Virus genome (UHGV): UHGV-0024034
From: a virus
Strand: one strand, 5' to 3'
DNA: 30,722 bases
In this document: piece after piece, positions 158-15,349 of the stretch
How positions within the stretch are numbered: the first letter of the stretch is position 1
Layout of the letters: each line of letters starts with the position of its first letter
Notes under the pieces: model-generated
The model's database searches: none
What the model was told of the DNA's origin: nothing
The model's input: only the letters and a program-made list of their open reading frames with translations
Translations under genes and position numbers: made by a program

Positions 158-1207
158 TTATGCAACCTCTGCCGCCACATTGTCGCCAACATACAGCGAT
201 AACGGATTGAGGGTTACAGCTTGTTCAAGGTGGTCAGGAGCAAAGTGCGCATACTTCATTGTTTCTCGAATATTGGCATGTCCGAGAATTTTCTGCAGCA
301 CCAGTATATTCCCTCCGTTCATCATAAAATGCGCACCAAAAGTATGACGCAAAACGTGCGTCTTCTGCCCTTCCGTCAATTCAATATTCGTTAGTTTGAG
401 CATCTTTTTAAACTCCTGATAGCAGGGTTTAAACATTCTGCCTTGACGTACGGACAACTCGTCGTACAGCCATTTAGGAATAGGAACTGTGCGATTCTTC
501 TTACCTTTGGTTTTGGTGAACGTTAGTTTATATGGAGAAAGTTGAGGTCGGGTCAATCTCTCCGCTTCCCCCCATCGAGCGCCGGTTGCAAGGCACACCT
601 TAACAATCATGGTGAGGTCTTCTTTGCCGTATTGCTCGCAGGCTCGAAACAGCTCCGGGAGCTGAGACAAAGTTAGCCAGGACATTTCTTTCTCAGCTTC
701 TTTGAATACTCGGATCCCATCAAGTGGATTGGGTAGGCTCCACTCCCCTAACCGGCGGAGCTCATTAAACACTGCTTCTAGGTATTGTTGTTCGCGATTG
801 ACGGTTATAGGTTTGGCGATCCATTTCGAGGGGTCTTTATGATAACCATTGTCTATTTCACCACGTAATCGACGGTCACGATAATGAGCCCAGTCTTTCG
901 CGGTAAGGCGAGATGCAATCGGGTCGCCAAGTCCATTACATACGATTTGAAGCTTTGCAAATCTCGACTTACTGGCGACTAACGCTTGACCGTGCAAATT
1001 GTGCCAAAGCTGAATAATCTCGCTTAAGCGTCGGCGGTCTTCTTTCTTGCCGAGCCACGGCTTATCTTCACTCTCGCTTTTGGTAAATGCTTCAAATGCC
1101 TCGGCCTCACCTTTGGTATTGAACTGCCGACGTATACGCCGCCCTTCTCGACCATTTGGATAGAGTTCACACAACCATTTTCCACTTTTTTGTTTACTTA
1201 CAGTCAT
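158..1207 (-). CDS. int: Tyrosine integrase, P2 Int-like
   Basis: 349-aa ORF; N-terminal GRxGxRIRRxF and C-terminal HxLRHTFxxHFMMNGG...YAHFAP motifs typical of the P2 integrase family; adjacent to attL. Confidence 0.95.
   Translation of the reverse strand: MTVSKQKSGKWLCELYPNGREGRRIRRQFNTKGEAEAFEAFTKSESEDKPWLGKKEDRRRLSEIIQLWHNLHGQALVASKSRFAKLQIVCNGLGDPIASRLTAKDWAHYRDRRLRGEIDNGYHKDPSKWIAKPITVNREQQYLEAVFNELRRLGEWSLPNPLDGIRVFKEAEKEMSWLTLSQLPELFRACEQYGKEDLTMIVKVCLATGARWGEAERLTRPQLSPYKLTFTKTKGKKNRTVPIPKWLYDELSVRQGRMFKPCYQEFKKMLKLTNIELTEGQKTHVLRHTFGAHFMMNGGNILVLQKILGHANIRETMKYAHFAPDHLEQAVTLNPLSLYVGDNVAAEVA
163..190. repeat. attP arm repeat (candidate integrase arm-type site), copy 1
   Basis: CAACCTCTGCCGCCACATTGTCGCCAAC, about 24/28 identical to 30542..30569 in the same orientation; overlaps the int 3' end. 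Confidence 0.4.
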
Positions 1208-1231
1208 TGCGATACCGAGGCTAAAAGAAAA

Positions 1232-1570
1232 TTAATTACAAAGGGCTGTAGCGGCATCAATCACCGGTGAAATTGAAATTTTAACGCCGTCATACTCAGG
1301 GTCATCCTTCCATACGTCATCTAAGTTAGACCCCTCCAGCTTTCCTGATTTAACAGCATCTACCGCCATGCCATTCAGAGGATATCTATCATCAGTTTTG
1401 ATGTCATACACAAAAGCATAAGCACGGTTAACACATGATACCTTTGCCTTTTCAAAGGTTAGAGGCCACTTGTCACCATATGCAGCGCCGTCTATCTCTT
1501 TAAACTTCTCAGCGGCTATGGCTGAGGAAGAAAGTGCAATGCAGACTATCGCAAATATAAACTTTTTCAT
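1232..1570 (-). CDS. Small secreted protein (signal peptide, two Cys), accessory gene downstream of cI
   Basis: 112 aa; N-terminus MKKFIFAIVCIALSSSAIA is a typical Sec signal peptide; GGAG Shine-Dalgarno 5 nt before the ATG, only 9 bp after the cI stop; locally AT-richer than the structural genes. Confidence 0.6.
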   Translation of the reverse strand: MKKFIFAIVCIALSSSAIAAEKFKEIDGAAYGDKWPLTFEKAKVSCVNRAYAFVYDIKTDDRYPLNGMAVDAVKSGKLEGSNLDDVWKDDPEYDGVKISISPVIDAATALCN

Positions 1571-1579
1571 TACTGCTCC

Positions 1580-2425
1580 TTAAACATGCTTTTCCAAAGT
1601 AAAAATAACCGCACCTGATGGTGTGATATCTGAAATATTACATTCAAACTCAGCAGACTTATTTGATAACCTGACCTTTCCGCCTGGCAACCTGATTACG
1701 TCAAAAACATCGAGTGCGCCATCAATACCAATAAGCCAGCGACCATTTCCTATCTTCGAGTTAGAACTATCAACAAGCCAAGATGTGCTCACACCATCAA
1801 TAAACACTAAATCATCAGTATTTGATGGAACCATAGATATATCAGGAGTCCAGCGTCCGATATCTTTGAGTTCGCCAGCCTCGAGGCGGCACTTTCTAAT
1901 CGTTAAAGCATTTGCCGGTTCACCATCATTACTGTTACGCATCTGGCCTTTTCCGGTTGATAACCATTCTAACGATACGCCAGTATCAAGGGCGCAAGTG
2001 ACAACCACGTCACCGGGGAAAAAATCGCGTCTAACCCAAGTGCTTATAGTGCCGGAAGATATACCTAATAAATCTCCAAGCTCTTTTTGCAGAGTAAAAC
2101 CATACGCATCGAGAATCCGACGCAGAACCGCCCTCCCTCCATTTGCCATGATTTCATCATAGAGTTGCTTACCTTTAAGCTTAGTTTTCACCACTTCAAA
2201 TCTTGCATTTGCAAGCTCACCATTAATTAGCCATCGCAGGTCAGCTCCAGTATCAAGAGCACACTCAACGAAAACGTTGCTAGGGATTACGTTTCTAGCA
2301 AGCCAGCTACTCACGTTGTTTGCATGTATGCCAAGCCTTTCGGCTAGTTCCTTTTGCTGCTTAAAGCCGTATGCAGAAAGGACACGTTCCAATGCGGCAG
2401 ACGCATTAACATCATTTTTAGACAT
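1580..2425 (-). CDS. cI: CI-type immunity repressor (186 CI-like) with tandemly duplicated N-terminal HTH domain
   Basis: Two internal repeats (..VLSAYGFKQQKELAERLGIHANNVSSWLARNVIPSNVFVECALDTGADLRWL.. and ..ILDAYGFTLQKELGDLLGISSGTISTWVRRDFFPGDVVVTCALDTGVSLEWL..) resembling the 186 CI HTH domain, plus a C-terminal domain. Start taken at Met-64 of the ORF-track frame, because the upstream part of the ORF runs through the promoter region. Confidence 0.8.
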   Translation of the reverse strand: MSKNDVNASAALERVLSAYGFKQQKELAERLGIHANNVSSWLARNVIPSNVFVECALDTGADLRWLINGELANARFEVVKTKLKGKQLYDEIMANGGRAVLRRILDAYGFTLQKELGDLLGISSGTISTWVRRDFFPGDVVVTCALDTGVSLEWLSTGKGQMRNSNDGEPANALTIRKCRLEAGELKDIGRWTPDISMVPSNTDDLVFIDGVSTSWLVDSSNSKIGNGRWLIGIDGALDVFDVIRLPGGKVRLSNKSAEFECNISDITPSGAVIFTLEKHV

Positions 2426-2446
2426 ATGACACCAACAAGAATTTTG

Positions 2447-2475
2447 TTTACAACCAAAATTTAGCGATCTATATT
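2447..2475 (+). promoter_or_regulatory. Putative rightward early (lytic) promoter pR: -35 TTTACA (2447..2452), 17-bp spacer, -10 TATATT (2470..2475)
   Basis: Sigma70-like hexamers with canonical spacing in the cI-apl switch region; CI operators and the leftward cI promoter not resolved. Confidence 0.4.
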
Positions 2476-2538
2476 GGTGCTCACCGACCAAGATGCACAC
2501 CACTGCACTACATTTCAAACAACAGGAGATAATGCGAT

Positions 2539-2910
2539 ATGTCAGATGCAAAATCAATCTCGACGCACGACTCGCAAAACTCACAAAATCAAACTGTGCT
2601 GCTAGACCCAACACAGTTTGATGCCATCGTTACCGCCATGCTGCCAGCTCTACAGACAATGATTCGCTCCGCTATGTCAGACACGATGACTGTGAAAGAC
2701 TTCGCCGCTACTCGCGGTGTTAGCGAGCGTCTGGTCTGGCAATGGCTCGATGAGGGAGTCCTTCTCAAAGCTCCGACCAAAGACTTTTCCAACAAAGAGG
2801 AAGCTGCTAAACGAAGCCGAACCCTCGTAAATGTAAAAGCATGGCGCGATAAGCTGACTCAACAAGCGATTGATTGTCGCTACATCGACCAGCGCACCGC
2901 TCTTAACTGA
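2539..2910 (+). CDS. Apl/Cox-like excisionase and transcriptional regulator
   Basis: First rightward gene after the switch region; HTH-like segment TVKDFAATRGVSERLVWQWLDEGVL; AGGAG RBS about 10 nt upstream. Longer than 186 Apl, so the true start may be an internal Met. Confidence 0.55.
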   Translation: MSDAKSISTHDSQNSQNQTVLLDPTQFDAIVTAMLPALQTMIRSAMSDTMTVKDFAATRGVSERLVWQWLDEGVLLKAPTKDFSNKEEAAKRSRTLVNVKAWRDKLTQQAIDCRYIDQRTALN

Positions 2911-2942
2911 ATTTGATTATGCAAGTTAGAGGGAATTTAACC

Positions 2943-4479: not shown

Positions 4480-6702
4480 TTGGCTGTTCAATTCGCTTAT
4501 CCGTGGAACGTCCCACGGTCGGCAATCTCCAGCCCATACCTTACTTATGAGCAACAGCATCGCCGCGACCGTATGTTCGCGGCTTTGCTGCATGCAAAAA
4601 AGGTGCTTTCTCTCCAGCCCGACTGCGTGCGGTTAGATGTTTATCGCACTGCTGCGGTGCTGGAGCAAAATCAGGGTAGTCAACGAGCCAATGCATTTTT
4701 AATCAGCTTCTGCAAAAAGGCATTGCCGCGTCTTGAACTGGTCGCAAAAAAATACGAATGCGCTGGTATCAACAGCAAGGTATCAACCGCTGTTTTTGGA
4801 AGTCATTTTGATACTCAGCAAATGCAATATCTGTCGTCACGCATGGTTAATATGGTCGCCCAATATAACCGTCTCCCGGACATGTCGCGCGCTGATGTTG
4901 ACCTGTTGGCCGCTGATATTGCTAATTTCATTCGTGGTGAACTTGCCAACATTAATGACCACGGATTCGGCGAGCTTAAAACGCTGTACACCTGGTATAT
5001 TCGTGCTGGCTTTATTTCCCTCCAATTCAACGTTATCCCACCACATTGGGAGCGGGTTGAAAAAAAATATGTCGGTGCGGATGAAATCGCACCGGCTATC
5101 GCCAAAATGTTTAACGATGGGTGGTGGCGCGGTCGTTTGCGCCGTGTTGCAGCTACGTGGCGCGAACACCTGCAAATTGCAGTCGGCAACGTCAGTAAGA
5201 AAAAAAACACTTACGCGAGTAAAAACTGCGTGACTGACTGGCGTGAACAAAAGCGCCGCACTCGTGAATTTCTCAAAGGTCTGGATCTCGAAGACGAAGA
5301 CGGCAACCGTATCAGCCTAATTGAAAAATATGATGGCTCAGTTGCTAACCCTGCGATTCGCCGCTGTGAGCTCATGACCCGCATTCGTGGGTTTGAAAAC
5401 ATCTGTAATGAGCTCGGTTATGTCGGTGAGTTTTACACTCTAACCGCGCCGTCAAAATATCACGCCACGACTAAAGCCGGTTACCGTAACAGCAAATGGA
5501 GCGGTGCCAGCCCGGCTGACACGCAAAACTATCTAACCGGTATCTGGGCGCGTATCCGTGCCAAACTACATCGGGAAGATGTCCGTATTTTCGGTATTCG
5601 TGTCGCCGAGCCCCATCACGACGGCACTCCACACTGGCACATGCTGATGTTCATGCTGCCGGAAGATGTTGAATATGTTCGCTCCATCGTCCGTAAATAC
5701 GCATGGAAAGAAGACCGCCACGAACTGAAAAGCGATAAATCCAAAAAAGCACGTTTCCACGCCGAGTCCATTGACCCGGAGAAAGGCAGCGCAACCGGCT
5801 ATGTTGCTAAATACATTTCAAAAAATATCGACGGTTATGCTCTCGATGGTGAAACCGATGATGAAAGCGGTGAGCTGCTGAAAGAGACAGCCCCCGCCGT
5901 TTCAGCATGGGCTGCGCGCTGGCACATCCGTCAGTTTCAGTTTATTGGTGGTGCGCCGGTGACGGTTTACCGTGAGTTGCGTCGCCTCGCTGATACCGAA
6001 ACCGCGCACGGTCTGAGCGTTGAGTTTGCCGCCGTCCATGATGCCGCCGACGCTGGTGACTGGGCTGGTTATGTTAATGCTCAGGGTGGGCCGTTTGTCC
6101 GTCGCGATGATTTACAGGTGCGCACACTGTATGAACCGCGCACCGAGCTTAATCAGTACGGTGAGGAAACGGTATGTATTAAGGGGGTCTACGATTCCTC
6201 CATAGGTGCAGGAAGCCCGATTTTAACCCGGCTCACTCAGTGGAAGATTGTTCCGAAGCGTGCTGTTGATTTGGCCGTTGACCTTCAGGACGGCAAAGCC
6301 GTCCCTCGGAGTTCTGTCAATAACTGTACGGGAAGCGAAAGCGATCCACCGATACTGGATTTAACAAAACCACTGAGTCGGCGTGAAAGACGAGAATTGA
6401 CCAACCGACTCAGGAAGCAAAAGCCAGCAGCACGGCGAAAATTCATCCACGGAACGGATGAGCAAAACGCAGCTATAGCTAAAACTATCGATGAGATACA
6501 TCTGACAACCGGCATTAATATCAGCCGGGGCGAAGCCCTGCACCTGATGGCCGGTGGTAAAAGTTGTTTTGATGGTAAATGGCTACGCGGAACGGCCAAA
6601 GGAGAAATATTTTCCGCAGCACCATCGCATGAGGCTAAAGCTCGGAAAATCCTTAATCGTGTTGCGGCGATGGCTGAAGCATCAAAACCAATACATGAGT
6701 AA
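4480..6702 (+). CDS. A: Replication initiation endonuclease gpA (rolling-circle initiator)
   Basis: 740 aa; conserved EPHHDGTPHWHMLMF and GYVAKYISKNIDGYALDG motifs; N-terminus aligns with P2 gpA; apparent TTG start with a G-rich RBS. Confidence 0.95.
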   Translation: MAVQFAYPWNVPRSAISSPYLTYEQQHRRDRMFAALLHAKKVLSLQPDCVRLDVYRTAAVLEQNQGSQRANAFLISFCKKALPRLELVAKKYECAGINSKVSTAVFGSHFDTQQMQYLSSRMVNMVAQYNRLPDMSRADVDLLAADIANFIRGELANINDHGFGELKTLYTWYIRAGFISLQFNVIPPHWERVEKKYVGADEIAPAIAKMFNDGWWRGRLRRVAATWREHLQIAVGNVSKKKNTYASKNCVTDWREQKRRTREFLKGLDLEDEDGNRISLIEKYDGSVANPAIRRCELMTRIRGFENICNELGYVGEFYTLTAPSKYHATTKAGYRNSKWSGASPADTQNYLTGIWARIRAKLHREDVRIFGIRVAEPHHDGTPHWHMLMFMLPEDVEYVRSIVRKYAWKEDRHELKSDKSKKARFHAESIDPEKGSATGYVAKYISKNIDGYALDGETDDESGELLKETAPAVSAWAARWHIRQFQFIGGAPVTVYRELRRLADTETAHGLSVEFAAVHDAADAGDWAGYVNAQGGPFVRRDDLQVRTLYEPRTELNQYGEETVCIKGVYDSSIGAGSPILTRLTQWKIVPKRAVDLAVDLQDGKAVPRSSVNNCTGSESDPPILDLTKPLSRRERRELTNRLRKQKPAARRKFIHGTDEQNAAIAKTIDEIHLTTGINISRGEALHLMAGGKSCFDGKWLRGTAKGEIFSAAPSHEAKARKILNRVAAMAEASKPIHE

Positions 6703-6776: not shown

Positions 6777-6796
6777 TACTGTATAAATATACAGTA
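6777..6796. promoter_or_regulatory. LexA box (SOS operator) TACTGTATAAATATACAGTA
   Basis: Perfect CTGT-N8-ACAG palindrome with an AT-rich core; -35-like TTGCCA at 6763..6768; about 20 bp upstream of the ORF at 6816. Confidence 0.8.
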
Positions 6797-6815: not shown

Positions 6816-6998
6816 ATGGTTGGCGAACATTTCAGCCGAACGCAGCAAAAGTGGGCTTGTGTGCAATTTATTGCCGAGGTATCTCTGATTGCAAACTGCA
6901 AGCCATCAGACTTAAAGCTCGCGCTCACTCTCATTGCAGACCTAGCAAACAGCGAAAATAACGAAACCGAAGATGATAATTTTTATAAGGCTGATTAG
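6816..6998 (+). CDS. Small protein in LexA-controlled operon; candidate Tum-like antirepressor N-terminal part
   Basis: 60-aa ORF with GGGAGGG RBS directly downstream of the LexA box; function inferred from context only. Confidence 0.45.
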   Translation: MVGEHFSRTQQKWACVQFIAEVSLIANCKPSDLKLALTLIADLANSENNETEDDNFYKAD

Positions 6999-7001
6999 AT
7001 T

Positions 7002-7235
7002 ATGAGAATCAATATCACGTTGGATAAAGAGCAAAAAATTAGTCAGGCAACATTGGATGCACTTGAGGCTGAACTGTACCGCAATCTTCAACCTATTTAC
7101 CCAAAGACTGCTATCCGAATTCGCAAGGGCTCCGCTAATGGCGTTGAACTAAGCGGTTTGAAACTGGACGAAGATAAAAAACGAGTAATGGAAATCATGC
7201 AGCAGGTATGGGAGGACGATAGCTGGCTGCATTAA
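7002..7235 (+). CDS. DinI-family protein
   Basis: 77 aa, MRINITLDK...LDALEAELYRNLQ...EIMQQVWEDDSWLH; same length and pattern as E. coli DinI as I recall it (MRI.V...DAL..EL.R...I.Q..WE..D.W). Confidence 0.75.
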   Translation: MRINITLDKEQKISQATLDALEAELYRNLQPIYPKTAIRIRKGSANGVELSGLKLDEDKKRVMEIMQQVWEDDSWLH

Positions 7236-7237
7236 CA

Positions 7238-7306
7238 AACGCCGCCGGTGCTGAAACTTGCTTTCAGTGCTGGCGGGGTTGAACAACTCGCACCGCGAGG
7301 CGCTAG
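7238..7306 (+). repeat. Hairpin-containing 69-bp repeat, copy 1 (15-bp stem 7242..7256 / 7262..7276)
   Basis: Direct repeat of 7643..7711 with about 9 mismatches; imperfect inverted repeat forms a stem with G-U pairs on the plus-strand RNA only; begins immediately after the stop codon of the DinI-like ORF. Confidence 0.6.
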
Positions 7307-7430: not shown

Positions 7431-7640
7431 ATGCATCGACTACCGGGCGAAATTCCGCAGCACAAAACTAAAAGCATCAAACTGATGGCCATCGTTCATC
7501 GTCTGCAGCAGATAATGGTCAATGAGAATTTGACACCCGCCGAGCTGGTCGGGTGTGCCGAAATAGTCAGGGATAATTACGGCAAGCTGGATAGCATCAG
7601 CAAGCCGACACATTACTCACCGCCACCACGTCGACCATAG
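7431..7640 (+). CDS. Hypothetical protein
   Basis: 69-aa ORF with GAGGG RBS, flanked on both sides by the hairpin repeats. Confidence 0.4.
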   Translation: MHRLPGEIPQHKTKSIKLMAIVHRLQQIMVNENLTPAELVGCAEIVRDNYGKLDSISKPTHYSPPPRRP

Positions 7641-7642
7641 AT

Positions 7643-7711
7643 AACGCCGCCGGAGCTGAAACTCGCTTTCAGGTCTGGCGGGGTTGAACAACGAGCTACG
7701 CGAGGCGTTAG
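7643..7711 (+). repeat. Hairpin-containing 69-bp repeat, copy 2 (stem 7647..7661 / 7667..7681)
   Basis: See copy 1; begins immediately after the stop codon of the ORF at 7431..7640. Confidence 0.6.
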
Positions 7712-7773: not shown

Positions 7774-7968
7774 ATGCAAAATCCCCTTTCATCGAAAAAT
7801 GACCCGTTTGCCGATTGGGCAAAGAATCTGACTTTAATGGCTTTAAATAACGACCTGAGCTCTCGCGAGGTGGAAAGCTACACCGCAAAAATGGTCGAGC
7901 AGGCCGGTAAAGATGAGCTATCAGTCGTTATCAAACACCTGTTAAATCACATCAGAATGCGCAAATAA
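7774..7968 (+). CDS. Hypothetical protein
   Basis: 64-aa ORF from an internal Met of the ORF-track entry 7684..7968, whose N-terminal part lies inside repeat copy 2; weak RBS. Confidence 0.35.
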   Translation: MQNPLSSKNDPFADWAKNLTLMALNNDLSSREVESYTAKMVEQAGKDELSVVIKHLLNHIRMRK

Positions 7969-7984
7969 GAGGAACTATATAAAT

Positions 7985-8086
7985 ATGTTATCTCTCGTTT
8001 ATGAAAATCCGTGGACGACGATTTTTCTGATGATTTTTGCCAGCATGTGCCTCAACAGTGTTATTGGCGCATTGCGCGGCCATTAA
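7985..8086 (+). CDS. 33-aa hydrophobic peptide (candidate small membrane protein)
   Basis: MLSLVYENPWTTIFLMIFASMCLNSVIGALRGH; AAGAGG RBS about 11 nt upstream; followed by a strong terminator. Below the 60-aa cut-off of the ORF track. Confidence 0.3.
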   Translation: MLSLVYENPWTTIFLMIFASMCLNSVIGALRGH

Positions 8087-8104
8087 TCGCGACAAAACCA
8101 GACT

Positions 8105-8134
8105 AAAACCGGCACCCTGAATGCCGGTTTTTTT
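8105..8134 (+). terminator. Rho-independent terminator
   Basis: Stem ACCGGCA/TGCCGGT (8108..8114 / 8122..8128), 7-nt loop, then a run of seven T; preceded by an A-run, so possibly bidirectional. Confidence 0.7.
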
Positions 8135-8294
8135 ATGCCATTTTTCCGCGAATTTCCCGTTTTTTAGTCGTGCATGCATTAGGTGCATGGTTTTGCATGC
8201 GTCAGTCTTGCCCGTTCTGTCCGTGCGCCGCCAGAGCTAGCGCGGATCCAGAGTTGTCATGCAACTGCATTAAAACCGCCCCATAAAGCGGGCA

Positions 8295-8313
8295 GGCGTG
8301 GCGGGGAAAGCAT
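8295..8313 (+). other. cos: cos site, 19-nt cohesive-end sequence GGCGTGGCGGGGAAAGCAT
   Basis: Exact match to the 186 cohesive end as I recall it (P2 differs at two positions); lies between the replication side and the packaging genes, as expected in a P2-type prophage. Confidence 0.7.
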
Positions 8314-8532
8314 TGCGCGCCAGCAGTGATGCATAATAATAAAAATTATCCTCTGAGCGCGTCGTGATGGCGCTGTCGTGGTCGCTGCTGGTTCGTTGGT
8401 GGTCGAGTGTGTTCGTGCGCGTGAGACGCATCTGATGCGTGATGGTGGTGTGCATGGAAAAGCCACCAGGAGCAGCGGCTTTACAGGAGTGGCAGGATTC
8501 AAACTGCTAATTATGTTTCTACTATGATTAAA

Positions 8533-9537
8533 CTAATTTACATGTATGTAGAGTTCACCGTCGCCAGACCAATCGGGACACTCTAAAACAAGCCCAAACT
8601 GCTTGAATATTTCATCAATGATTATTGTTATCTCCCGAAAATCACCAAAACCTGTAATGTGCTGGTCATTAAACTTCCCATAAAGATTCTGAAAAGCAAT
8701 GCCTAATTCTGATAATTGATATCTTATCTTTGAGTTGGATAGTGTAAGGGATAGCTTTGGATCGTATTCTTTAATATTGATGTTTAGAGAATGGACATAA
8801 CCCATCGCATAAGCATAAGAGTTGATGATTAGCCTGATACGTTTTTTTACTTCAAGATACATGTCATTCAGAGAAATATTACCGTACTTATAACCCCAGA
8901 TGAGTTTTTCAATCTCGTCAGATACTTCATTTACAACAGTGTCAAGATTCTCTAAAAATAAATCGATAGTTTCTTGAGGGGCAGACCCCGAAGACATGTA
9001 ATTAGCGAGATATTCAGACCATGCACGCGTGGCTGAGATAAGAAGCGCGCTACCATACTCGTTGACTGTAAAGTTTTGGGCTAAGCATGTTAGTAAGTTT
9101 TTTTCATGTACGTGCACTAATTCATGGTGAATGCGATGGATGACTGCGAGGTATCCTTCTTCTTTCAGTTTTAAGAAGCTACCATCATTGAAAAGCTCAA
9201 CAAAAAAATCAATCGATAGCACAAGGGTATATTCTTCACATAGCCCATCATTGCCAATTTTTGTTACTAACTGCCCGACGGCTGCGCCCTGTTTGCTATT
9301 GGTAAATGAACTAGGGGATTTGTGTTGGTAAGAGGATGTTACCTTTTGAAGAGCTTCACTGAAGTTATAGGAAACAATCACGCATTTTAATTTGGAGATA
9401 TCAAGATTGAGATTTTTTGTTAAAGCTCGGATAGCTTCTAGTGTGAAATTACCGATATTATTTGCTTCTTGCTCAGTAGCGAAACCTTCGAGGGTTATTT
9501 TAAAATCAGTTTCCAAAATATTAATCTCCGCGCCCAT
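8533..9537 (-). CDS. AT-rich orphan protein with HExxH motif; candidate anti-phage or abortive-infection effector
   Basis: 334-aa ORF, markedly AT-rich by eye relative to the GC-rich flanks; HELVHVHE at residues 138..145 (nt 9126..9103); no resemblance to P2/186 core proteins that I recognise; lies between cos and portal gene Q. Confidence 0.6.
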   Translation of the reverse strand: MGAEINILETDFKITLEGFATEQEANNIGNFTLEAIRALTKNLNLDISKLKCVIVSYNFSEALQKVTSSYQHKSPSSFTNSKQGAAVGQLVTKIGNDGLCEEYTLVLSIDFFVELFNDGSFLKLKEEGYLAVIHRIHHELVHVHEKNLLTCLAQNFTVNEYGSALLISATRAWSEYLANYMSSGSAPQETIDLFLENLDTVVNEVSDEIEKLIWGYKYGNISLNDMYLEVKKRIRLIINSYAYAMGYVHSLNINIKEYDPKLSLTLSNSKIRYQLSELGIAFQNLYGKFNDQHITGFGDFREITIIIDEIFKQFGLVLECPDWSGDGELYIHVN

Positions 9538-9555
9538 TGTTTTGATATTCGATGC

Positions 9556-9584
9556 ACTATAGCTTTCGCAGATTGCATCTTCAA
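9556..9584 (-). promoter_or_regulatory. Putative sigma70 promoter for the AT-rich gene: -35 TTGAAG (9584..9579), 17-bp spacer, -10 TATAGT (9561..9556)
   Basis: Hexamers with canonical spacing on the minus strand in the 77-bp gap between the Q stop and the ATG at 9537; no clear Shine-Dalgarno. Confidence 0.35.
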
Positions 9585-9614
9585 TAATGAGCGCAGAGAT
9601 TGTGGCGGCCTAAG

Positions 9615-10661
9615 TTATTCTGGGTTGTCGAGGGTGTACTCTTTGAATCTGATGACCTCCATGCCGAGCCAGTCATTTACCTCCCTGAACCTGTCCTGTA
9701 GCGGCGACAGCTCGTTGCGCACAAATACCTTTGCCACCTTCTCAACATCACCGAGTGAACCGATATTCTCGGGCTTGCCGCCCATGAGCTGGAACGGTAC
9801 GCGGTGCGCGTCCATCAGATCGGCGGCACTGGCCTTCTTGATGTTGAAAAAGTCATCCTTTGTGGCGACCTCGCTCAGTGGCACGATTTTGATGCCGTCC
9901 GGTTTTCCGCCGGGAGCGTAGAAAAACAGGTTCTTAAAGTTGCCGAGCCCTTTTGAGTTGCGCATCGCCTCGCGCAGCGATTCGACGTCGGTCGCGCTCT
10001 GCGCCGGGTCAGTCACATACATGATGTAGCCTGCGTGCGCGCCGTTCTGATAATACTTGCGGCGGAACAGCGTCGCGGATTCATTCAGCCAAGCGGAATT
10101 AAGCGCGCTGAGATATTCCGGCAGACCGTAAATCTCCTGATTAATGTCGGGCTCCAGCAGGTGAAACACGGTATCAGGCGCGAACTCGTGCGGCTGGGTG
10201 AAGTTTTCCACAAACCAGAAAATCGAATCGTCGACTCCGCGTCGGGTGTATTTGGCTGGCGAGGCCAGCAGTTTGATTAACTGGCCGGTGACGCTGTGGC
10301 GCTGCTCAAGAAAGGCGTTACCGAACACCAGATAATCGAGCGCAAAGCGGCTGAAATCCTGACGGGATAACAACGGGTGCGGAATGTAGGTGCTCGCGAG
10401 CACGTTACGCTTAACATAAATTGGCGAGCTGTGATGCACGGCAGAGCGCAGGCTCTTTGCCAGCCCTGAGAAGCTGACCGGCGGCTCGTACCATTTGCCG
10501 TTACTGATGCACTCGACGTAATCCAGAATGTCGCGCTTATCGAGTACCGGCACCGGCTCGCCGAAGGTGAACGCTGTCGTTTTTGGCGGTGCGCTGGCGG
10601 TCAGTTGTTGTGGTTTGCTGGCCTTTTGTGCGTTGGCTTTACGGGATTTTTGTTTACCCAT
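9615..10661 (-). CDS. Q: Portal protein gpQ
   Basis: 348 aa; long conserved blocks shared with P2 gpQ (FTFGEPVPVLDRRDILDYVEC, LPEYLSALNSAWLNESATLFRRKYY, FFNIKKASAADL). Confidence 0.95.
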   Translation of the reverse strand: MGKQKSRKANAQKASKPQQLTASAPPKTTAFTFGEPVPVLDKRDILDYVECISNGKWYEPPVSFSGLAKSLRSAVHHSSPIYVKRNVLASTYIPHPLLSRQDFSRFALDYLVFGNAFLEQRHSVTGQLIKLLASPAKYTRRGVDDSIFWFVENFTQPHEFAPDTVFHLLEPDINQEIYGLPEYLSALNSAWLNESATLFRRKYYQNGAHAGYIMYVTDPAQSATDVESLREAMRNSKGLGNFKNLFFYAPGGKPDGIKIVPLSEVATKDDFFNIKKASAADLMDAHRVPFQLMGGKPENIGSLGDVEKVAKVFVRNELSPLQDRFREVNDWLGMEVIRFKEYTLDNPE

Positions 10662-10662
10662 T

Positions 10663-12432
10663 TTAGTTGAACTCCAGAATAGATTTAGGCTGCATGCCGC
10701 TACCGGCAGAAAGCGGTTCGTTTAACAGGGCGTGCATGGTCGCCCATGCGATATCGGCGTGGCTGGCTTCCTCGGTGCGGCTGGCCTCATAGGTGGCGCA
10801 GCGCCCGCTGCTGGTCATGGTTTTGCGGATGGACATAAACGACTGCGTGACGTCGGTTGCTCCGGCGTCGTACTCCAGACAGCCACGGCGTATGGTGTCT
10901 TTCGCCTTGAGTACCATTGCGGTTTTCATTTCAGGTGTGTAACGGATGCCGCGTGCCGCCGGGTAAAATGAGCGCACCAGCTGGAACACGCCGAGACCGA
11001 GGCCGGTTGCGTCAATGCCGATGTATTCGACGTTGTATTTCTCGGTCAGCTTGCGGATGCCCTCTGCCTGTGCTGCAAAATCCATGCCCTTCCACTGGTG
11101 GCGCTCCAGCATGCGGAACTTGCCACCAGAGACCACCGGCGGCGCGAGCACGACGCACCCGGCACTGTCGCCGGTGTGTGACGGGTCGTAGCCAATCCAG
11201 ACAGGACGAGAGCCGAACGGATGGTCGGCGAACGGGGCAAAGTCCTCCCATTCCTCCATCACATCGACCATGCAGCGCTGCAGCTCCTCGAACGGGAATA
11301 CCGACGCTTTATCGTCGACAAACTCGCACATAAACAGGTTCTTAAAGTCCTCATCACTGTTTTCGCGTTTGAGCTGGTCGAGGTCGAACAGGGTGCAGCC
11401 ACCCGCAAGGGCGTCCTCAATGGTGACAATCTGCCGCCACTGGCCATCGTCGCAGAGCTGGCCACCGGCGAGCGCGCTGTGACTGATGTCGATTTCGATG
11501 CGGTCGGCAATCCGGCTGCGCCCCTTGTTGAACAGCTCGCCAGACCAGAAGGGGTAAGCGCCGTGCGCCAGCGTGGAAGGTGTCGAAAAATAGGTCGAGC
11601 GCAGGTGCTTTTGCGAGGCCATGCCCGAGGCGACTTTGCGCAGTTTCTGAAAATTCGGGATCCAGAATATTTCATCGACATACAGATCGCCGTTATGGCT
11701 CTGCGCGGTGTTGGAATTGGTACCGAGAAAAATCAGTTTTGCGCCGTTGTTACCGATGACAATCGGGTCGCCAGTCAGATCAACGTCGACCAGTCGCGCA
11801 AACTGGATGATGTATTCGCGGAACACGTAAGCCTGCGTTTTACTGGCTGATAAAAATATCTGGTTATGGCCGGTTTTGAGTGCGCGCAGCAGTGCCTCGC
11901 GGGAGAAATAGAATGTCGCGCCAATCTGGCGGGATTTGAGAATGTCACGAATACGGTGCTCCAGTCCTGCGCGGTACCACTGCAACTGGTACTCGAAAGA
12001 CTGGTCGAAAAATAATTCCTCTAGTTTATCGATAGCCTCGTCGCTGAAAAAATTCTTTTTCGGCTTTTTGCGCTCCCCTTTGTTGCGGTTGGCGACGTTG
12101 GGGTTAAGGTCGGCTTCGTTGCCGGTCTGGCTGTAGCGGTTGACTCGCGCCAACCGTTCAATCTGCCGTCCGAGCAGGTCAATCTCTTTGAAATCACCCC
12201 CTGTCTTTTGCGGCTTGGCGATGAGCTGAATCAGCCTGGCCTCAAGGCTGCTTTCAACGCGGGAAATCGGCGCGATGCCGTCCCAGCCGTCGCGCTGCTT
12301 CCAGCTCTGCACGGTCGGGCGCTTGACCTGCAGCATTTCGGCAATCTGTGGCACGGAAAAACCCTGCCAGTAAAGCAGCGATGCCTGCCGTCGCGGGTCA
12401 TGCAACAAGGTTGTATCGGTGGAAATGGTCAT
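10663..12432 (-). CDS. P: Terminase large (ATPase) subunit gpP
   Basis: 589 aa, same size and position as P2 gpP; its stop abuts the Q start. Confidence 0.9.
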   Translation of the reverse strand: MTISTDTTLLHDPRRQASLLYWQGFSVPQIAEMLQVKRPTVQSWKQRDGWDGIAPISRVESSLEARLIQLIAKPQKTGGDFKEIDLLGRQIERLARVNRYSQTGNEADLNPNVANRNKGERKKPKKNFFSDEAIDKLEELFFDQSFEYQLQWYRAGLEHRIRDILKSRQIGATFYFSREALLRALKTGHNQIFLSASKTQAYVFREYIIQFARLVDVDLTGDPIVIGNNGAKLIFLGTNSNTAQSHNGDLYVDEIFWIPNFQKLRKVASGMASQKHLRSTYFSTPSTLAHGAYPFWSGELFNKGRSRIADRIEIDISHSALAGGQLCDDGQWRQIVTIEDALAGGCTLFDLDQLKRENSDEDFKNLFMCEFVDDKASVFPFEELQRCMVDVMEEWEDFAPFADHPFGSRPVWIGYDPSHTGDSAGCVVLAPPVVSGGKFRMLERHQWKGMDFAAQAEGIRKLTEKYNVEYIGIDATGLGLGVFQLVRSFYPAARGIRYTPEMKTAMVLKAKDTIRRGCLEYDAGATDVTQSFMSIRKTMTSSGRCATYEASRTEEASHADIAWATMHALLNEPLSAGSGMQPKSILEFN

Positions 12433-14599: not shown

Positions 14600-15349
14600 A
14601 TGACGAGCCCCGCACAGCGTCACATGATGCGGGTCTCGGCCTCTCAAGCCGCGCAGCGGGAGCAAGCCCCGCTGCGCCATGCAACCGCCTATGAGCAGAT
14701 GCTGGTTAAGCTGGCCGATGACCGCCGCACGTTAAAAAACATCCGTTCAAACGAACGTAAAGCCGAGAAAAAGCGCGAGCTGCTGCCGTTCTATGCGCCG
14801 TGGGTCGCCGGTGTGCTGGCTGATGGCCGTGGTGCGCAGGATGACATTGTCATGACCGTCATGCTGTGGCGTCTCGATGCCGGTGATATCGCTGGCGCGC
14901 TGGAAATTGCCCCGTACGCGCTGAAATACGGCCTCACCTCTGACCACCGCCGCACAACACCTTACATGCTGGTTGAGGAAGTGGCGCTTGCTGCGCAGCG
15001 CCTGCGCGATGCCGGTGAGTCTGTCGACCTTTCCTGGCTGCAGACCACTATCGACCTGACCGACGGCGCTGACGTTCCCGATATGGTGCGCGCCCGTCTG
15101 CATAAGGTGACAGGCCTGACCCTGCGTGATGCCGGTATGAATGCAGAGGCGCTGGCGCAGTTTCAGCGCGCGATGCAGCTCGACCGCAATGCCGGTGTGC
15201 GCAAGGAGATTGAGCGACTGGAACGGGCATTGAAGCCAAAGCCAGAGGCCGCGCCCCGTAAAACGACTAAACCGCGCACGCGCAAACCTGCCAACAAACC
15301 GGCGGCAAAGCGCGGGCGTCCACCAAAGGCGGTAAAAACCGCCGGTTAA
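14600..15349 (+). CDS. M: Terminase small (endonuclease) subunit gpM
   Basis: 249 aa with a basic Lys/Arg/Pro-rich C-terminal tail; follows N as in P2. Confidence 0.85.
   Translation: MTSPAQRHMMRVSASQAAQREQAPLRHATAYEQMLVKLADDRRTLKNIRSNERKAEKKRELLPFYAPWVAGVLADGRGAQDDIVMTVMLWRLDAGDIAGALEIAPYALKYGLTSDHRRTTPYMLVEEVALAAQRLRDAGESVDLSWLQTTIDLTDGADVPDMVRARLHKVTGLTLRDAGMNAEALAQFQRAMQLDRNAGVRKEIERLERALKPKPEAAPRKTTKPRTRKPANKPAAKRGRPPKAVKTAG

Follow-up and report, generated by a model that had tools for sequence, protein, structure and literature searches.

Gene organization around the cos site

The DNA analysed here, the virus genome UHGV-0024034 (30,722 nucleotides, referred to below as the window), contains genes encoding a GPA replication protein (4480..6702), a portal protein, a gpP-type large terminase subunit (TerL), a gpO scaffold, a P2-type capsid protein, a gpM-type small terminase subunit (TerS) and an integrase, and the portal, TerL and TerS genes are intact. 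A cos site was located between the replication gene A/accessory region and the leftward portal-terminase (Q-P) operon, as in the Peduoviridae. The portal gene (9615..10661, - strand), which encodes a homologue of gpQ and of 186 W, matches PF04860 and aligns to the 3' end of 186 W.

Two intrinsic terminators mark the limits of the region that is collinear with phage 186. The left limit is a t95b-like hairpin (8105..8135) that aligns with 186 t95b and ends the rightward SOS/accessory operon; its 12-pair stem (8105..8131) was reported on the - strand by the terminator scan, and on the + strand the stem is followed by a T run. The right limit is a tW/tQ-like terminator (8452..8485, - strand), in which a stem (8476..8462) is followed by TTTTCC. 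It aligns with the annotated tW of 186 and tQ of P2, and serves the leftward terminase-portal (and cargo) transcript.

Several features were observed in the accessory region to the left of these elements. A perfect LexA box (TACTGTATAAATATACAGTA, 6777..6796) is located upstream of a 60-aa ORF (6816..6998) and a DinI-family gene (7002..7235), and this operon, transcribed toward cos, corresponds to the p95/tum operon of 186, which is under SOS control. A 69-nt direct repeat (7238..7306 and 7643..7711, 87% identical), with a hairpin inside (GCCGCCGG..CTGGCGGGG), has one copy behind the dinI-like gene and one behind a 69-aa ORF (7431..7640), both of them small genes. The copy of this repeat in 186 is located after orf97, and the partial terminator t95a after tum in 186 may be another copy. 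The repeats flank a swappable gene cassette and could act as recombination sites. Just upstream of the t95b-like terminator, a 33-codon ORF (7985..8086, + strand), predicted to encode the hydrophobic peptide MLSLVYENPWTTIFLMIFASMCLNSVIGALRGH, had no PHROG match; its product may be a small membrane peptide, unless the ORF is not a gene.

Identification of the cohesive end

The 19-mer GGCGTGGCGGGGAAAGCAT is located at 8295..8313 on the + strand. No other match to it exists in the 30.7-kb window when up to three mismatches are tolerated, and 100 shuffles yielded none at all. The same sequence is annotated as the cos of 186 (NC_001317, 1..19) and is identical in PsP3. The cohesive end of P2 and P4, GGCGAGGCGGGGAAAGCAC, is two bases off, with A and C where the window has T5 and T19, and the family pattern GGCG(A/T)GGCGGGGAAAGCA(C/T) is found at 8295..8313 in its exact 186/PsP3 version. 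The initial annotation had placed a 186-type cohesive end of 19 nt at these positions and had proposed an alignment with the P2 and 186 cos regions. Both the position and the sequence proved to be correct, since they match the annotated 186 and PsP3 records exactly, and the alignment gave the 19-mer of 186 with two differences from P2.

The ends of sequence records fall at the same place. In a search of 50,697 phage records, the last base of the 186, SEN1 and EtG records aligned to 8294, and the first base of the PsP3 record aligned to 8295; cos annotations are carried by the 186 and PsP3 records. The predicted nicks of the 19-nt end lie between 8294 and 8295 on the top strand and between 8313 and 8314 on the bottom strand, and the 5' flanks of the two nick sites, as read from the sequence, are alike on both strands (GCGGGCA^G and GCGCGCA^A).

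Alignment of 8105..8485 with the joined ends of 186 was collinear in the order t95b, cos and tW, with an identity of about 86-88% in the flanks. In addition, the 1.6 kb around cos (8100..9700) are 100% identical to an E. coli chromosome. The 19-mer, the breaks between records, the collinearity with 186, the gene set and the identity to an E. coli chromosome all identify the site as the cos, still uncut, of a complete 186-like prophage (Peduoviridae) that resides in an E. coli chromosome. This is already-known biology, and the identification of cos is not new in itself, since the 186 cos occurs in the prophage of a few dozen sequenced E. coli strains. Cleavage of the prophage DNA would be expected at this cos.

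The cos regions of 186 and PsP3 (Eganvirus, Peduoviridae) share with the window the same 19-nt end, the t95b terminator, an array of TGCAT motifs, a conserved core, a G/T-rich region and tW, and the 186 cos has the same placing relative to the SOS/dinI-like operon and the portal-terminase operon. Unlike these shared features, the small accessory genes to the left of cos differ between 186 and the window.

Comparative anatomy of the cos core

Related cos regions were gathered by scanning for GGCGNGGCGGGGAAAGCA. The 120 viral contigs obtained were classified by tblastn as 98 P2-like, 18 P4-like and 4 unknown; 31 of 120 genome contigs had a P2-type core, the remainder being chance matches in GC-rich genomes, and 10 of the 31 were P4-like satellites, with a Psu only 41-66% identical to that of P4. 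All regions were anchored, ungapped, at the first base of the cohesive end, from which the positions below are counted. The pooled set comprised 137 distinct cos regions, from 110 P2-like phages and 27 P4-like satellites.

An information-content profile was computed for 41 non-redundant regions, the flanks of which are less than 70% identical to one another. Two conserved blocks were detected, a core at -36..+25 and a second block at -112..-95. The core (8259..8320, + strand), which is near-invariant in the 41 regions and was also delimited by a four-way anchored alignment, includes both nick sites and an internal pair of motifs with the arrangement ATGCA-N2-TGCAT, formed by an inverted ATGCA at 8259..8263 (site D) and a TGCAT at 8266..8270 (site E). 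It is common to P2, P4 and 186, as a conserved block of about 55-60 bp, and corresponds to the P2/P4 homology of 55 bp in the literature: two secondary sources (PMC9594776, PMC5694545) give a '55-bp core' of the P2/P4 cos and attribute it to Ziermann & Calendar 1990.

The identity between satellites and phages (mean ungapped) differed greatly from segment to segment. It was 0.28 in the far-left flank, 0.55-0.64 in the array of TGCAT motifs, 0.36 in the 58-bp spacer between array and core, 0.88 in the core, and 0.26-0.29 to the right of +26. The values for the spacer and the outer flanks (0.26-0.36) are those of background or close to it. In the window the spacer (8200..8258) is GC-rich; its length is fixed and its sequence poorly conserved. 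The P2 and P4 cos sites resemble that of the window nearly base for base from about -36 to +25 and have TGCAT at -111, -101 and -29. Unlike the window, P2 has old and tin to the left of cos and a more degenerate array, and the sequence of P4 past +26 is unrelated.

A distal array of TGCAT motifs at fixed positions

The array (8171..8199, + strand), a set of putative terminase recognition elements, comprises site A (8171..8179, TGCATGCAT, at -124), site B (8184..8188, at -111) and site C (8194..8198, at -101). The three TGCATG motifs listed upstream of cos in the initial annotation were found at 8171, 8184 and 8194 on the + strand. TGCATG is not enriched in the window as a whole (29 found, 31 expected), and the window has only one cluster of three; three TGCATG within 30 bp on one strand occurred in 2 of 500 dinucleotide shuffles of the window.

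Position-specific counts in the pooled set indicated that these motifs are conserved. Among the P4-like satellites, TGCAT was present in 27/27 at site A (-125..-119), at site B (-111), at site C (-101) and at site E (-29), and TGCA of the inverted ATGCA in 22/27 at site D (-35). The corresponding numbers for the P2-like phages were 71/110 for site A, 86/110 for site B, 92/110 for site C, 92/110 for site D and 106/110 for site E. Site A is thus the weakest in phages, and the array is degenerate in a few phage loci (e.g., L202 and L183). At least two TGCAT were found within -128..-93 in 61 of 73 phage regions that are non-redundant outside that block, and control 36-bp windows in the 73 regions never contained at least two. 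In regions with very diverse flanks the motif positions shift by only about 1 bp, and the array is also retained in the satellites with the divergent Psu (41-66% identity to that of P4).

The left edge of the array coincides with a boundary of homology. The similarity to the phage record vB_EcoM-613R3 begins at position 8170 of the window, as it does in 17 E. coli genomes among the matches listed, which fits, in these alignments, an array that would form the functional left boundary of cos. A breakpoint scan of 12 close relatives was biased by the choice of relatives and was not relied on.

Because two conserved blocks are held at a fixed distance, with an unconserved spacer between them, in elements that share only packaging, these comparisons indicate selection on the array rather than hitch-hiking. 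The TGCATG motifs of the array are therefore plausible recognition elements for terminase, position-conserved throughout the family, which probably help the enzyme to find its site. [quoted passage not shown] The window likewise combines a nicking site with short repeated elements at fixed distances from the nick (-124, -111, -101, -36 in inverted orientation, and -29), and by analogy with lambda these elements would be read by terminase. Unlike the lambda site, the cos of the window has no sequence similarity to lambda cos, its repeats are located across the cut from the terminase and portal genes, and the substrates of P2-family terminases are monomeric circles. No match to the IHF consensus WATCAANNNNTTR was found in 8100..8500, and without such a consensus between array and core the analogy is incomplete.

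In the papers searched, nothing relevant to P2 terminase binding sites or TGCAT repeats was found, nor any data on binding of the repeats by the small terminase subunit. A longer cos region was reported to have raised P2 cosmid transduction from 1.7e-5 to 0.035 (PMC9594776). The 55-bp core of the secondary sources would exclude the distal array.

Distant relatives and candidate readers of the motif

Two more distant phages were compared. In the Ralstonia phage RSA1, the cohesive end has diverged (GGTGAGGCGGGGTCCCAACC), and TGCAT is kept at -129, -110, -100 and -29, with TGCAC at -35. The Pseudomonas phage phiCTX retains the five positions, but with NGCAG in place of TGCAT at all of them (-110, -100, -84, -38 and -29 relative to its GGCG). 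This motif switch was seen in one lineage only, phiCTX; as a concerted change of distal and core-proximal sites it suggests, from the sequences compared, that all five sites may be read by one protein. The phiCTX record annotates "R4, R5, R6 repeats" across cos, and repeats near cos have thus been noticed before, at least for phiCTX.

Two window-encoded proteins are candidates for reading the motif. TerL, a gpP homologue of 589 aa (10663..12432, - strand; PF03237, PF17289, PF06056 and HTH_23), was aligned with its phiCTX and RSA1 counterparts in the N-terminal part, where it has a helix-turn-helix (HTH) domain (PF06056/HTH_23; residues 12-69, 12226..12399, - strand). TerS, a gpM homologue of 249 aa (14600..15349, + strand; PF05944), was aligned with the same two phages and is the other candidate. 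Since TerL has an N-terminal HTH of its own, the small subunit need not be the only determinant of site recognition. The HTH region of gpP reads VKRPTVQSWKQR and VKPVTVHSWKRR in the two phages of the TGCAT type and EKDKTLHSWKDR in phiCTX, so that the putative recognition helix differs between the pattern VK(RP/PV)TV(Q/H)SWK(Q/R)R of the TGCAT type and the phiCTX sequence. This difference, seen in a single lineage, is compatible with co-variation of HTH and motif.

It is possible, but unlikely, that the array has no role in packaging and was carried along with its surroundings. The flanks of cos are recombination hotspots (PMC9122126), the arrays of P4 and 186 are nearly identical in sequence, and just a 55-bp core is named in the secondary literature (PMC9594776, PMC5694545), all of which speak for this view. 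However, the 58-bp spacer has diverged to near background (0.36) and the array has not, the motifs remain fixed to about 1 bp despite the diversity of the flanks, and the observed recombination breakpoints are located at the outer edge of the array rather than between array and core. Furthermore, the sites have survived in RSA1 despite its different cohesive end, and the distal sites of phiCTX have changed in concert with the core-proximal pair.

The non-coding stretch to the right of cos

Between the core and the tW/tQ-like terminator lies a non-coding stretch (8321..8456) that is specific to the phage lineage; it is homologous to 186, more weakly to P2, and absent from P4. An A/T-rich tract (about 8324..8345) is followed by a G/T-rich region, and 8340..8456 has a composition of G44 T36 C22 A15 on the + strand, with a GC skew of +0.30. 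Both copies of the 8-mer CGTGATGG are located in this stretch, at 8363..8370 and 8438..8445 rather than at about 8355 and 8441, where the initial annotation had placed them. A repeated 8-mer was present in 37% of shuffles of 8314..8532, which puts the pair at chance level. In alignments, the first copy is replaced by CGTAATGG in 186 and by CGTGACGG in P2, and the second has no P2 counterpart. As a functional repeat, CGTGATGG was rejected, being at chance level, not conserved and absent from P4.

The suggestion of the initial annotation that the CGTGATGG pair may be a terminase element is not supported, for the same reasons, together with the lack of anything homologous in P4 beyond +26. A broader version of this view, in which the G/T-rich region as a whole (8321..8456, with the CGTGATGG copies) would be a terminase binding site on the Q side resembling lambda cosB, was considered and is quite improbable. 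The cosB of lambda is on one side of cosN, beside the terminase genes, and the right-hand stretch would have the corresponding position; it is also non-coding with a marked strand asymmetry, and is conserved among P2-like phages (0.40-0.45 ungapped identity). Common ancestry of the Q 3' region and its terminator, however, accounts for this conservation, and the P4-like satellites, which use the same terminase, share nothing past +26. Since P4 is unrelated from +26 onward, the stretch cannot be required for recognition, and it was interpreted as the untranslated end of the leftward late operon together with its terminator.

The statement that this stretch has little coding potential was borne out, as substitutions showed no third-position excess and the alignment with 186 contained indels. 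In the frame 8270..8455 (- strand), substitutions among relatives numbered 79/133/85 at codon positions 1/2/3, and two 1-nt indels fell inside the frame in the alignment with 186. This frame stays open, in many relatives as well, because the strand is poor in T and G. The ORFs at 8257..8502 (-), 8270..8455 (-), 8183..8329 (+) and 8378..8527 (+) were all rejected as genes, and the curated 186 record annotates no gene across cos. Public records were also observed to call a 'hypothetical protein' straight across cos in this frame (8270..8455 (-) in the window, 6101..6286 (-) in locus L004), for example in phage vB_EcoM-613R3; these are probably spurious gene calls.

An Rfam search of the whole window gave no family at the gathering score, and only sub-threshold chance matches in 7900..8700, so that nothing points to a structured RNA in the non-coding stretch. 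As a separate observation, the leftward transcript of 8340..8456, just downstream of the tW-like terminator, would be C/A-rich and G-poor, a composition that recalls Rho-utilisation sites and might provide a back-up against transcription entering cos.

A model for recognition of the cos site

The array might alternatively act on transcription, as a second terminator or a host-factor site that shields cos from the rightward accessory operon, but this is the least probable of the explanations considered: sites A and B do form an inverted repeat (CATGCA-N5-TGCATG, followed by GTTTTG) that was picked up by the terminator scan, and the array lies just 3' of a strong terminator both here and in P4 (there after psu), yet the stem is short and AT-rich, site A, which supplies one stem arm, is the least conserved (71/110), B and C are direct repeats 10 bp apart, the core itself has the motif at -36 and -29, where termination would be pointless, and the array is still present in P2, where the left-flank genes run oppositely (old is leftward).

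The preferred explanation for the region as a whole is a 186-type cos with a bipartite site, in which TGCAT motifs would be contacts for terminase, and next to which cargo has been inserted, and we estimate its probability at roughly 0.9. After induction, the window-encoded gpP and gpM would be expected to nick the top strand just ahead of 8295 and the bottom strand just past 8313, and virion DNA would have 19-nt 5' cohesive ends of the sequence GGCGTGGCGGGGAAAGCAT. The functional site would be in two parts, the core (8259..8320) and the distal TGCAT array (8171..8199), with a spacer, fixed in length and free in sequence, that keeps the array about 72-95 bp upstream of the core pair. The TGCAT motifs would be contact points for an oligomeric component of terminase, either gpM or the N-terminal HTH of gpP, which would engage the distal and the core sites alike and bring the nuclease to the core. 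The G/T-rich stretch on the right-hand side of cos, with the CGTGATGG pair, is the non-coding tail and terminator of the late P-Q operon and is not needed for recognition.

The cargo gene and the cos-adjacent hotspot

The distance from cos to Q (8295 to 9615) is 1320 bp, compared with 196 bp in 186, the difference being a 1.1-kb insert with a 334-aa cargo gene. The initial annotation gave this interval correctly as about 1.3 kb and took it to exceed a minimal packaging site; the distance holds, and the idea of an enlarged packaging site does not, as the length from terminator to terminator is that of 186. The interval is long because the cargo gene entered between the stop codon of Q and the tW-like terminator. 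Homology to 186 is lost just past this terminator (about 8486) and starts again at the stop codon of the portal gene (9615), and the inserted 1.1 kb have a GC content of 32-41%, compared with about 55% on either side. It was concluded that the cargo is foreign DNA, acquired horizontally, and that the packaging site is not enlarged.

The cargo gene (8533..9537, - strand) encodes a putative zinc hydrolase with an HExxH..E motif (H138, E139, H142, E145). Upstream of it, a sigma-70-like sequence (TTGAAG-17-TATAGT, 9556..9584, - strand) is a consensus match only; promoter-like matches in the region were as frequent as expected from shuffles, and the evidence for a cargo promoter is weak. The protein has 78 homologues in Enterobacterales, Shewanella and Psychromonas, in which H137, H138, E139, H142 and E145 are invariant (HHExxHxxE). 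It belongs to PHROG 11743, of unknown function, and matched no Pfam or PADLOC model, and so no recognised defence family.

The AlphaFold model of the cargo protein, a confident one (pLDDT 90), consists of an N-terminal alpha/beta domain that contains the motif helix, followed by a long helical bundle. Nothing significant was detected in a PDB sequence profile search or a Foldseek search of the PDB. The N-terminal 140 residues or so showed a weak resemblance to small zinc hydrolases (YbeY, Wss1, M61 and MMP), consistent with the HExxH motif. Distant homologues were found as single genes in unrelated variable neighbourhoods or islands, without a conserved partner gene. The cargo protein is thus an uncharacterised candidate zinc hydrolase in a defence hotspot.

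The gpA-gpQ interval around cos is known as a P2 defence hotspot (PMC9122126, PMC13586616), and the cosL-Q interval has been called a hotspot since the work on 186 and phiCTX (PMC5694545). Among 94 related loci, the cos-to-Q distance was 192-208 bp in 79 and 403-3237 bp in 15, which have an insert between cos and Q, with one locus sharing the 1.3-kb arrangement of the window, and the A-to-cos distance ranged from 555 to 6041 bp. Gene content varies in this way among otherwise collinear relatives, as is characteristic of a hotspot. The window resembles the P2 gpA-gpQ hotspot (Rousset et al. 2022) in having a foreign gene between cosL and the portal gene. In phiCTX this slot holds the ctx cytotoxin gene (362..1222 of locus L130), and in RSA1 it holds T6SS-type cargo encoding PAAR, DUF4123 and immunity-52 proteins (353..2917 of locus L256); RSY1 has cos-proximal cargo as well and was grouped with RSA1 and the cos-ctx region of phiCTX. 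Unlike the cargo of phiCTX, RSA1 and the hotspot, the HExxH protein of the window matches no known defence or toxin model. The occupation of the slot in both RSA1 and phiCTX indicates that the insertion point is used across host genera.

Implications for the P2 family

The more general proposal, that the signal read by P2-family terminases is bipartite, formed by the array and the core pair, that the motif co-evolves with terminase, and that P4-like satellites keep the array for packaging, is put forward tentatively, as one that we would sooner expect to need revision than to hold in full. If it is true, the left edge of the array would mark where cos truly ends and, with it, the limit of the neighbouring defence hotspot. 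In practice, the outer array edge and the Q terminator provide exact boundaries for both sides of the cos-adjacent cargo hotspot, which helps to annotate cargo genes and to remove spurious "hypothetical proteins" across cos. Furthermore, the minimal region to be retained in the construction of P2/P4 cosmids or cos-deleted helper strains may be about 150 bp (8171..8320) rather than 55 bp, and a minimum of this size would agree with the gains of 1000-fold and larger that were reported when cos fragments were lengthened.
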